DNA of 21,278 nt from an uncultured Deinococcales bacterium (GTDB taxonomy: Bacteria > Deinococcota > Deinococci > Deinococcales > JAAFIG01). The notes below the pieces were generated by a model. That model saw nothing but the letters and a program-made list of their open reading frames with translations. It did no database searches and was not told the DNA's origin. Shown piece by piece: positions 18,142-21,278 of this stretch (position 1 is the stretch's first letter; each line of letters starts with the position of its first letter). Location: assembly GCA_964244895.1 (NCBI GenBank), contig CAXTKV010000078.1, positions 1-21,278 of the forward strand, read 5' to 3'. The position numbers and the translations under genes are program-made.

Positions 18142-18513
18142 TCAGTTGCCGACCGTGAACGAACCAACGCCCGAGATGCTGCTCGTGGCCGTGACCGTGA
18201 CCTTCTGCGTGCCCGAGGTGAAAGACACATTGCAAGCCGTCAGCGTCGCCGGGCCGGAGCCCGCACCGTAGCTGCCCACCGTGTAGCTGCCCGTACACAC
18301 GGTGGTTGGCAAGGTCGTGGCGCTGATGTTGTCAGCGATGTACGCGTTGGCCGCCTTGAAGACGTTCTGCGTGTACGCCTGCTCCGCGCGCTTCTGCGCG
18401 GTCACGCGGGCGCTCAGCAGGTTCGGGATCAGCACGGCGGCGAGAATACCGATGATGGCGATCACGATCAGCAGTTCGATCAGGGTAAAACCTTGCGATT
18501 TGTGGTTCTTCAT
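18142..18513 (-). CDS. pilA: Type IV pilin (probable major pilin)
   Basis: Class III signal peptide MKNHKSQG/FTLIELLIVIAIIGILAAVLIP with Glu5; two C-terminal Cys; strong RBS GAGGAG. Confidence 0.92.
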   Translation of the reverse strand: MKNHKSQGFTLIELLIVIAIIGILAAVLIPNLLSARVTAQKRAEQAYTQNVFKAANAYIADNISATTLPTTVCTGSYTVGSYGAGSGPATLTACNVSFTSGTQKVTVTATSSISGVGSFTVGN

Positions 18514-19012: not shown

Positions 19013-21278
19013 ATGAACGACCCCAGATACCTGACCACCGCGCAAATCCGAGAGTTGTACCTGTCTTTTTTCGAATCCAAAGGCCACCTTCGCGCCGCAT
19101 CGCACCCGATCCCCGTCTACGACGACAAAACCCTGATGTTCAGCGTGGCTGGCATGACGCAATTCAAACCGTACTTCATCGGTGCGGAACCCAACTTTCC
19201 CGGCAAGGGCATCTGGCGTCGCGTCACAACTTCTCAGAAGTGCATCCGGATCGGGGATATCGAAAACGTCGGGCGCACGGATCGGCATTGCAGCTTCTTC
19301 GAGATGCTGGGCAATTTCAGCTTCGATTCGTACTTCAAAAAAGAAGCCATCGAATGGGCGTGGGAATTTTTGACGAATGATCAATGGCTCGGCCTCGACC
19401 CGGCTCGCATGTACGTCACGATTTACAAGGACGACGACGAAGCCTTCGAATACTGGCGCGGCGTCGGACTGAGCGCCGACCGCATCAACCGCTTCGATGC
19501 CGACGAGAACTTCTGGCCGCAAAACGCGCCCAGCAAAGGCCCGAACGGCCCGTGCGGCCCGTGCTCTGAAATTTACTACGACCGAGGCGAGGCTTACGGC
19601 ACCGACACCTGGGCCGATTACGCGCAGAACCCCGAAAGCAACCGATTTCTGGAAATCTGGAATTTGGTTTTCCCCGGCTACAACCGCACGGACGGCGAGG
19701 ATGGAAAAGGCGCGCTAGAAGACCTGGGCCGCAAGAACATCGACACTGGCATGGGCATGGTTCGCGTCGTCGGGATCATGCAGGGCGTGCGCGATTTCTA
19801 CGACAGCGACGACTTCAAACCGTTGATCGCCGAGGTCGAGAAGTTGAGCGGCAAGCCCTACGACGGCCCCTCGAGCATCAGCCACCGCGTGATCGCGGAA
19901 CACGTTCGCATGGTTTCCATGACCCTGGCCGACGGCGTGACCTTTGGGAACACCGGGCGCGGCTACGTGGTCCGCAAGGTCATGCGCCGTGCGAGCCGCC
20001 ACGCGTACCTGCTGGGCATGAAAGAACCCGTAATTTACAAACTGGTTGGTTTGGTCGCGCAAACGTTGGGACAGCATTACCCAGAGATTGTTGAACGCCA
20101 GGAAACCGTGGCAAAGCAGATCAGGCAAGAAGAAGAACGATTCTTGAAGACGCTCGAGAATGGCGTCCGCTTGCTCGATGAAATTATGTTTGCAGCAATC
20201 TTCGAGACGGGTTCGAAAATACGTGAAAGCCGCAAGTTCAAGGATGATGAGTACATCGGACAATGGTTTGGCGTGGAGATGGATACTCGAGTTCGGAAAC
20301 AACTTGTTCAAATGTTTGGTGTCGAGTATATGCGTGAACATTCAAGCCAAGTAGCTCGTGATCTGGTCGAAAAGACGGGCTACTCCGGTTCAGTCGCGCC
20401 AATTCTTGAAGCTGAAAGAAATGAAGAACTGACTAAACCTTTAATTTCTGGGGACAAAGCCTTCACGCTTTACGATACCTACGGTTTTCCGCTCGATCTG
20501 ACTATCGAAATTGCGGAAGAACGCGGTGTAGCGGTTGACGTTGACGGTTACAACAAAGCGCTCGAGACCGCGCAAAATCTCGCTCGGGCAGGATCGAAAT
20601 ACAAAAACCTAGAATTGTTTTCGGGCGTGTCGGATGTACTCGAGGGCTTCAGCGAGACAAGATTCGTGGGCTACGAGCACCTGACGGCGGAATCGAAGGT
20701 GTTGGGCATCATCGCGGATTCGGATTCCATCTCGAGGCTGAACGCGGGGTCATCGGCGCAAGTGATCCTCGAGCCGACGCCGTTCTACGCGGAGGGCGGC
20801 GGGCAGGTCGGGGATTCGGGACGGCTGGAATGGGATGGTGGCGCGGCGGAGGTCTTGAACACGATCAAGACGCCGCAGGGCGTATACTTGCATCAGATTC
20901 GCGTGCTGGACGGTGTTCTCGAGGATGGGTCAACGGTTCAGGCGAAGGTCGGCGGGGTACGCAAGGCCACGGAGCGGCATCACACGGCCACGCACCTGTT
21001 GCAGGCGGCCTTGCGGGCGACGTTGGGCAGCGGCGTGCAGCAGAAGGGGTCGTTGGTCGCGCCGGATCGGTTGCGGTTCGATTTCAGCCACAATGAAGCC
21101 ATGACGCCGCCAGAAATTCGGCGTGTGGAACAACTGGTGAACCGCTGGATCGAGGCGGATTTCCCGGTCACGTACAAGCTCATGCCGATCGACGAGGCCC
21201 GAAAGACGGGCGCGATGGCGCTCTTCGGCGAGAAGTACGGCGATGTCGTGCGCGTCGTGTCGGTGGATGGGAACGTGA
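19013..21278 (+). CDS. alaS: Alanine--tRNA ligase, 3'-truncated by the window, carrying an internal insertion
   Basis: Manual translation is open to the window end: SQKCIR, DIENVG, FFEMLGNFSF, GPCGPCSEI, EIWNLVF, IDTGMG, LYDTYGFPLDLT, TPFYAEGGGQVGD, HTATHLL, QKGS, LRFDF, GAMALFGEKY. RBS GGAGG. Confidence 0.97.
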   Translation, partial: MNDPRYLTTAQIRELYLSFFESKGHLRAASHPIPVYDDKTLMFSVAGMTQFKPYFIGAEPNFPGKGIWRRVTTSQKCIRIGDIENVGRTDRHCSFFEMLGNFSFDSYFKKEAIEWAWEFLTNDQWLGLDPARMYVTIYKDDDEAFEYWRGVGLSADRINRFDADENFWPQNAPSKGPNGPCGPCSEIYYDRGEAYGTDTWADYAQNPESNRFLEIWNLVFPGYNRTDGEDGKGALEDLGRKNIDTGMGMVRVVGIMQGVRDFYDSDDFKPLIAEVEKLSGKPYDGPSSISHRVIAEHVRMVSMTLADGVTFGNTGRGYVVRKVMRRASRHAYLLGMKEPVIYKLVGLVAQTLGQHYPEIVERQETVAKQIRQEEERFLKTLENGVRLLDEIMFAAIFETGSKIRESRKFKDDEYIGQWFGVEMDTRVRKQLVQMFGVEYMREHSSQVARDLVEKTGYSGSVAPILEAERNEELTKPLISGDKAFTLYDTYGFPLDLTIEIAEERGVAVDVDGYNKALETAQNLARAGSKYKNLELFSGVSDVLEGFSETRFVGYEHLTAESKVLGIIADSDSISRLNAGSSAQVILEPTPFYAEGGGQVGDSGRLEWDGGAAEVLNTIKTPQGVYLHQIRVLDGVLEDGSTVQAKVGGVRKATERHHTATHLLQAALRATLGSGVQQKGSLVAPDRLRFDFSHNEAMTPPEIRRVEQLVNRWIEADFPVTYKLMPIDEARKTGAMALFGEKYGDVVRVVSVDGNV
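20897..20923. repeat. Palindrome-family unit embedded in the alaS coding sequence
   Basis: ATTCGCGTGCTGGACGGT is identical to 5063-5080 (18 nt) and is followed by GTTCTCGAG; it encodes IRVLDGVLE. Confidence 0.65.

Follow-up and report, generated by a model that had tools for sequence, protein, structure and literature searches.

Evidence for a swappable hypervariable cassette within the alanyl-tRNA synthetase gene of Deinococcales

Background

How does an essential gene come to carry, between two anchor motifs, a segment that differs from one close relative to another and may be missing altogether? Alanyl-tRNA synthetase (AlaRS) has been described as a conserved prototype structure, and alaS, the gene encoding it, is used as a marker on the assumption of vertical inheritance. 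The question is raised by the alaS of an uncultured member of a Deinococcales family, located at the end of the window (the whole stretch of DNA analysed here, 21,278 nt), in which an AT-rich insertion extends the protein without breaking the reading frame. An earlier note, made from the letters of the window alone, interpreted it as a foreign, possibly exchangeable domain cassette. The analyses described below provide good support for the reality of a swappable, hypervariable cassette in this essential enzyme, and allow the forces that could maintain it to be discussed with different degrees of confidence.

Results and discussion

Extent and composition of the insert

The alaS gene (positions 19013..21278 of the window, + strand, aa 1-755) matches PF01411 with an E-value of 7e-176 and scores 693 bits against the bacterial AlaRS family TIGR00344, for which the curated cut-off is 457. 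It is truncated by the end of its contig, and its C-terminal part was found on another contig (C280) of the same assembly (G000; 328 contigs, 91% complete), in which the N-terminal region is present in one copy and no other alaS was found. The in-frame insert comprises 86 codons (20186..20443, + strand, aa 392-477), precisely the coordinates and the sequence reported in the earlier note, and is swapped in for a loop of about nine residues, in keeping with the 8-10 residues that had been assumed to be normal. Because the distance between the anchor motifs EExxFxxTL and FxLYDTYGFP is 102 aa here as compared to 22-25 aa in the empty relatives, the net gain amounts to 77 aa, within the previous estimate of 75-80. 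Both the Pfam and the NCBIfam models of AlaRS are broken into two stretches, the first of which stops at aa 393-395. The internal repeat QWFGVEM/QMFGVEY, also pointed out earlier, is indeed present (20261..20326, + strand; two 18-nt copies, 78% identical, 48 nt apart), but it is weak and exceeds chance by a modest margin, an equal or higher score being obtained in 5 of 300 shuffles.

The insert has a GC content of 0.450 and a GC3 of 0.407, which reproduces the hand counts of 45% and 41% made from the window; GC3 in the rest of alaS is about 0.80, and, when the genome is divided into 19,693 segments of 258 nt, about 1% of them are as AT-rich. With respect to the internal dip in GC3, alaS ranks 8th among 3,263 ORFs, and first once the seven ORFs above it, all of which contain N-masked stretches, are set aside. 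The AT shift extends into the flanks, as had been claimed: the best two-change-point block is a tract of 600 nt (20021..20620, + strand) with GC3 of 0.475 versus 0.807, and GC3 is 36/61 in the 5' flank (Fisher p 4e-4) and 34/63 in the 3' flank (Fisher p 1e-5), as compared to 438/545 for the remainder of alaS. Among the relatives, insert GC3 is below that of its own gene in 26 of 26 alleles (mean 0.37 vs 0.76), and the fall of GC3 in the 3' flank amounts to 0.18 in the 26 insert-bearing genes as compared to 0.03 in 41 empty ones. Because related genes are not independent of each other, the p-values given for the flanks are too strong. The tract 20021..20620 is likely to represent the segment exchanged by recombination.

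Empty and filled slots among the relatives

Alignment of AlaRS from close relatives, which the earlier note had proposed as a check, revealed a loop that is empty in some of them and filled with different inserts in others. In the family of the host, 17 of 19 genomes yielded a match; eight of these have an empty slot and nine contain inserts (10 alleles, two of them in G013). In genus g7, which is Deinococcus according to one allele identical to a protein so labelled by NCBI, 110 of 111 genomes matched: 16 contain inserts, 91 exhibit one contiguous match, two are split by a stop or frameshift without a gap, and one is masked. In family f2 the slot is empty in all 45 matched genomes (G172 included). 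The filled slots of the family and of Deinococcus contain 59-126 extra residues, mostly mutually unrelated, and inserts are present in 9 of the 120 protein matches listed. Three of these proteins (P0002, P0003 and P0041) are 96-97% identical to the host AlaRS outside the tract and 81-93% identical in the flanks, and bear different inserts despite the near-identity of the rest. The slot is either empty or filled with one of many in-frame inserts at fixed boundaries, and related inserts occur on distant branches. An old, ordinary loop expansion, conserved across the clade and with host-like codon usage, would look different: here the relatives are empty or differently filled, and the inserts are of lower GC3 throughout (26/26). 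Empty slots predominate, and many lineages can therefore do without the insert.

Two assemblies contain two different insert alleles each, every one at a contig end (C67 and C11 in G013; C146 and C527 in G123), which could be due to co-assembled strains or contamination. Each species being represented by a single genome, these pairs give no more than a hint of polymorphism within species. The exact insert of the host is absent from the contigs of runs X1 and X2; in either run the site is spanned by one contig with different letters there (184 for 376 and 432 for 435, respectively), consistent with other alleles.

Outside these groups, loops of 41-113 aa were found at the same site in 7 of the best 80 of 599 loci from other phyla, a proportion that should not be taken as a frequency because the query was insert-bearing and one sixty-fourth of the collection was sampled. 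An expanded loop was seen in Neisseria musculi and in six uncultured bacteria of other groups (L040, L041, L044, L046, L054, L057, L103), in some cases with host-like GC3. A metagenome scan returned only three loci, all of them distant and empty.

Diversity of the inserts and selection on their products

Of the 34 distinct alleles analysed, 15 group into six families and 19 are near-singletons, which amounts to about 25 sequence groups. No motif is common to all of them, and the median z of pairwise similarity over 561 pairs is 0.1. Remote mutual homology is detectable in a subset that includes P0001, P0011 and G013a (0/300 shuffles), whereas the match of the host allele to the shared insert profile is not significant, 25 of 300 shuffles scoring as high. 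The P0001 insert starts with a similar helix (IAYAIFKTGAKI vs MFAAIFETGSKI). Iterative profile searches, which could have revealed a single superfamily, neither joined the families nor recruited the host allele.

None of the 26 inserts taken from genomes is interrupted in the frame of alaS, while stops occur in 129 of the 130 other frames. In all ten pairs of related inserts pN is lower than pS, and dN/dS is 0.30-0.40 in the three pairs with measurable dS. The inserts are under purifying selection, and each of them is likely to specify, as judged from the sequences, a translated small accessory domain.

Probable exchange between alaS genes

The backbone tree was calculated for 67 genes (26 with inserts and 41 empty, 20 of the empty Deinococcus genes having been hand-picked as likely neighbours), with the insert and about 60 residues on each side removed. 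On this tree, the presence of the insert requires 14 gains or losses, of which at least 13 are forced by the starred branches. In the AU tests (18 rows; the insert families had been delimited from the similarity of the inserts prior to tree construction), monophyly of the backbones was rejected for G052 and G086 (p 2e-50), for G063 and G044 (p 2e-91), and for G091, G096 and G118 (p 2e-6). In G126 and G075, the inserts are synonymously saturated (pS 0.80, 36% identity) but the backbone dS is as low as 0.15-0.17, and the flanks, with 0.73 and 0.36, are intermediate; these alleles are thus of far greater age than the gene in which they reside.

The junctions convey a similar picture. In genus g4, pairs with different inserts exhibit a pooled distance at four-fold sites that peaks at 0.59 just 3' of the insert, compared to 0.21-0.44 elsewhere, and amino-acid identity in the first 30 codons downstream goes down to 0.73. 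The DNA of G086 is near-identical to that of its empty sister G073 up to both junctions, between which a loop of about 10 codons was replaced, and no target duplication is visible there. G063 and G044 possess a common non-canonical flank motif that is missing from their empty sisters. Co-transfer of the flank is clear in this one of the four cross-clade families examined; in the other three, the flanks match the backbone sister as well or better. Taken together, the alleles are incongruent with the backbone phylogeny and a peak of divergence decays into conserved flanks, as in replacement cassettes, and we consider it very probable from these sequence comparisons that the cassettes are exchanged, likely by homologous recombination.

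Searches for a donor

Exchangeability, one half of the original proposal, thus finds support in the empty or differently filled slots of the relatives and in related inserts that cross the backbone tree. The other half, foreign origin, is unproven because a donor or a free-standing homologue was not found in the databases searched (Pfam, PHROGs, PADLOC, NCBIfam, phages, plasmids and a word-indexed protein set). Among shorter proteins, none of nine candidates was a homologue from outside AlaRS; among 7,995 longer proteins scored with the insert profile, the three matches were to AlaRS and apparently were members of the profile itself, which makes this result weak evidence. Searches of phages and plasmids with the insert gave no match, and neither did the ESM Atlas at 0.9 or more. 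For the 26 inserts, Pfam returned nothing above the cut-off (a GRIM-19 match with E 0.04 was rejected as falling below it), and the best PHROG (E 0.013) and PADLOC (E 2e-4) matches concern alleles other than that of the host. We infer that drift towards AT inside a pool of alaS cassettes is a reading equal to foreign origin.

Location within the enzyme

In the tRNA-recognition domain, a long helix leads into the insert, which stands in place of the short loop at the helix tip. According to the relevant passages of PMC6055181 and PMC8583063, E. coli Asp400 (A. fulgidus Asp450) contacts G3 and E. coli Asn303 (A. fulgidus Asn359) contacts U70. By alignment register, these residues correspond to Asp488 of YDTYGFP (20474..20476, + strand), located ten residues downstream of the end of the insert, and to Asn313 (19949..19951, + strand), both of which are intact. 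In the AlphaFold model of aa 1-546, for which 116 sequences were used, the core is predicted with confidence (mean pLDDT 87) and adopts the class II fold, confirmed by a Foldseek match to E. coli AlaRS (3hxz, E 6e-43); helix 363-406 runs on into a helical insert of low confidence (pLDDT about 41-68). The model suggests that the insert lengthens the long helix without disrupting either the catalytic core or the two contacts with G3:U70. Modelled alone from the single sequence, the insert reaches a pLDDT of 62.6 and a best fold-match Z of 4.0 for what is a low-confidence model, with no significant fold match by Foldseek or VIA. Three chromosomal-type tRNA-Ala genes and the tmRNA of this genome contain G3:U70; with such ordinary pairs, altered tRNA identity is not supported as a cause.

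Variation in the same region was observed among the relatives. In four alleles (L022 of G012, L005 of G013a, L123 of G063 and L131 of G044), the insert is accompanied by a Pro residue in the helix upstream and by changes to the YDTYGFP motif. The G3-reading Asp is replaced by Ala in G012, by His in G013a, and by Gly in six Deinococcus genomes (L126, L133, L156-L159), four of which are without an insert. In most alaS genes of genera g3-g5 (L002-L004, L007, L009-L011, L013, L017), the Asn303-equivalent is Thr or Ile and GRGY is replaced by EREY; discrimination of G3:U70 is possibly relaxed in these enzymes.

What maintains the cassettes?

On balance, we favour an explanation in which the slot is an allelic site for a predicted accessory domain, exchanged by recombination through the flanks, and in which the diversity of alleles is kept by conflict with phages or toxins. 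Incoming DNA would pair with the conserved codons on both sides and displace either the loop of about 10 codons or the cassette already present, in some cases together with part of the flanks. In what is the least certain step, rare alleles would be favoured, each of them altering a surface whose recognition is required of a protein encoded by phages or competitors; negative frequency-dependent selection by synthetase-binding phage or toxin proteins might, tentatively, maintain the alleles. That conflict is the driver of diversity is an evenly balanced proposition, which draws on how the alleles vary and on an analogy. The latter is provided by bacteriophage T4, in which the product of vs, by modifying ValRS, contributes to the fitness of the phage in minimal medium (part of PMC13716836), in a case of phages targeting host synthetases and thus of pressure of the kind proposed here; it differs in that the part of the paper considered concerns ValRS, without an AlaRS-binding phage protein or counter-variation in the host. 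If conflict is the driver, the cassettes point to synthetase-targeting phage or toxin proteins yet unknown, and to a layer of defence missed by gene-level tools.

It is tempting, if unlikely, to go further and regard the insert as an allele-specific shield or tripwire placed by the tRNA-reading surface, which would block a phage or toxin protein, or bind a phage protein and stop alanylation, aborting the infection. In that case a defence locus would be hidden in an essential translation gene, and synthetases would carry swappable immune cassettes. Several of the alleles are present in Deinococcus, a genus in which the exchange of cassettes in a laboratory strain would put these ideas to a direct test.

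Near-neutral carriage is a strong competitor of the conflict-driven exchange, because no AlaRS-targeting factor was found in the papers listed for toxins and empty slots predominate; we regard it as possible and not probable. Here, an insertion-tolerant loop would capture fragments by homology-facilitated illegitimate recombination, and these would spread by recombination and drift, with selection acting just to keep them folded and in frame. Such a scenario would account for the predominance of empty alleles, for the lack of a common motif (median pairwise z 0.1, 561 pairs) and for the enlarged loop at this site in 7 of the best 80 loci of other phyla, where GC3 is in some cases host-like. 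It is harder to reconcile with inserts that last to synonymous saturation within young backbones and recur on distant branches, with searches that found no donor outside AlaRS, and with domain-like sizes (59-126 aa) and fixed boundaries.

A quite unlikely alternative is that the insert serves as a niche-specific moonlighting or regulatory module (for binding of a partner, membrane or nucleic acid, or for tuning of tRNA recognition), spread horizontally where useful. Although purifying selection, the vicinity of Asp488, the altered YDTYGFP in the alleles of G012, G013a, G044 and G063, and the remote homology of P0001, P0011 and G013a (0/300), which fits one old domain, are all compatible with such a role, one function predicts conservation and not about 25 sequence groups in 34 alleles; the link of the host allele to the shared profile is not significant (25/300), and G3:U70 is ordinary in both tRNA-Ala and tmRNA.

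In-frame, site-specific and patchily distributed inserts in essential genes are also known in the form of inteins, RPE and REP/MITE elements. A selfish element capable of self-removal or of promoting its own propagation (an intein, an intron, a MITE or a homing cassette) would explain the single fixed site in an essential gene, the patchy distribution, and AT-shifted flanks reminiscent of a homing co-conversion tract. However, we judge it very unlikely. With patterns for intein, LAGLIDADG, GIY and HNH motifs, the host allele was found to lack intein-like termini (C/S at the N-terminus; H-N and then C/S/T at the C-terminus), and a C-terminal pattern was seen in 1 of 26 alleles; LAGLIDADG and GIY motifs are absent from all 26, and a loose HNH-like pattern occurs in four, the host's not among them. 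No insert matched a Hint or nuclease Pfam family, in agreement with the absence of intein termini and endonuclease motifs claimed at the outset for the host insert. Group I/II introns were rejected (no Rfam intron match up to E 1, and a folding z of 0.05), and so were MITE, REP and RPE inserts (no terminal repeats, palindrome, dispersed copies or second insert copy in the host genome). Silent-cassette antigenic variation of the pilS/vlsE type needs unexpressed donor copies in the same genome; it was rejected as well, the insert profile having matched the alaS site only (in two of the five genomes to which it was applied), and G006, a complete genome, possesses one alaS. Finally, an assembly artefact, which the absence of the exact insert from X1 and X2 contigs and the fragmentation into 328 contigs might suggest, is a negligible prospect given that the reading frame is continuous, that inserts with the same boundaries occur both in near-identical genes of independent records and in the complete G006 genome, and that the P0001 insert opens with a similar helix.

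Comparison with known systems

Full-text searches of a mostly open-access literature listed no paper whose title or opening lines of the abstract describe the AlaRS slot, no AlaRS-targeting factor was found among the papers listed for toxins, and the part of PMC7373986 considered contains no such slot. The nearest published concept is that of segmentally variable genes (Zheng, Roberts and Kasif 2004, PMC387263, in whose main text the word 'alanyl' is absent). The similarity lies in a variable segment flanked by conserved blocks, and synthetases figure among the examples given in that text, with the segments proposed to mediate interactions; however, those segments are of similar length by the method of selection, and divergence from one ancient segment is favoured for them. 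The AlaRS slot, on the other hand, is empty or filled (0 or 59-126 extra residues, so that filled slots vary twofold in length), and its alleles move horizontally.

Aminoacyl-tRNA synthetases are known to acquire lineage-specific appended domains, such as the cyanobacterial CAAD domain. The AlaRS inserts resemble the lineage-specific synthetase domains, e.g. the insertion domain of ProRS mentioned in PMC387263, in that an extra domain occupies a permissive site. Domains of the ProRS/CAAD type form conserved, recognizable families inherited with the lineage, whereas the AlaRS inserts match no family and differ between genes that are 96-97% identical elsewhere.

In flagellin, the hypervariable core of a surface protein is exchanged through conserved flanks. 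Replaceable flexible islands, as presented in the part of PMC3542563 considered, likewise have a variable core exchanged by recombination via conserved flanks, with raised divergence next to it; synthetase genes flank these islands and do not contain them. Both cases involve surface structures or whole gene clusters, and the AlaRS slot is a stretch of less than 400 nt in a cytoplasmic essential enzyme. In its behaviour the AlaRS loop is comparable to the variable part of a surface antigen, with dozens of old, apparently exchanged alleles beside a tRNA-identity residue.

Other observations in the host and its relatives

An AT-shifted block of about 150 codons was also observed in the editing region of valS of the host (contig C268, 4363-4812; L160/L161), with GC3 of 0.42 vs 0.87-0.90. 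It contains a 22-aa insert common to G005 and missing in the 14 other parsed genomes of the family (i.e. shared by 1 of 15). The gene 3' of alaS varies among the relatives (L031, L033, L035): according to a reading of the sequences by eye, it is a DNA-methyltransferase-like ORF in G013 and G009, and an AT-richer ORF of unknown family in G006. Divergently from alaS, the window contains a type IV pilin-like gene (18142-18513, - strand). Elsewhere in the host genome, ARAGORN called 24 tRNAs within 3.7 kb (contig C151, 8015-11705), an array suggestive of a mobile element.
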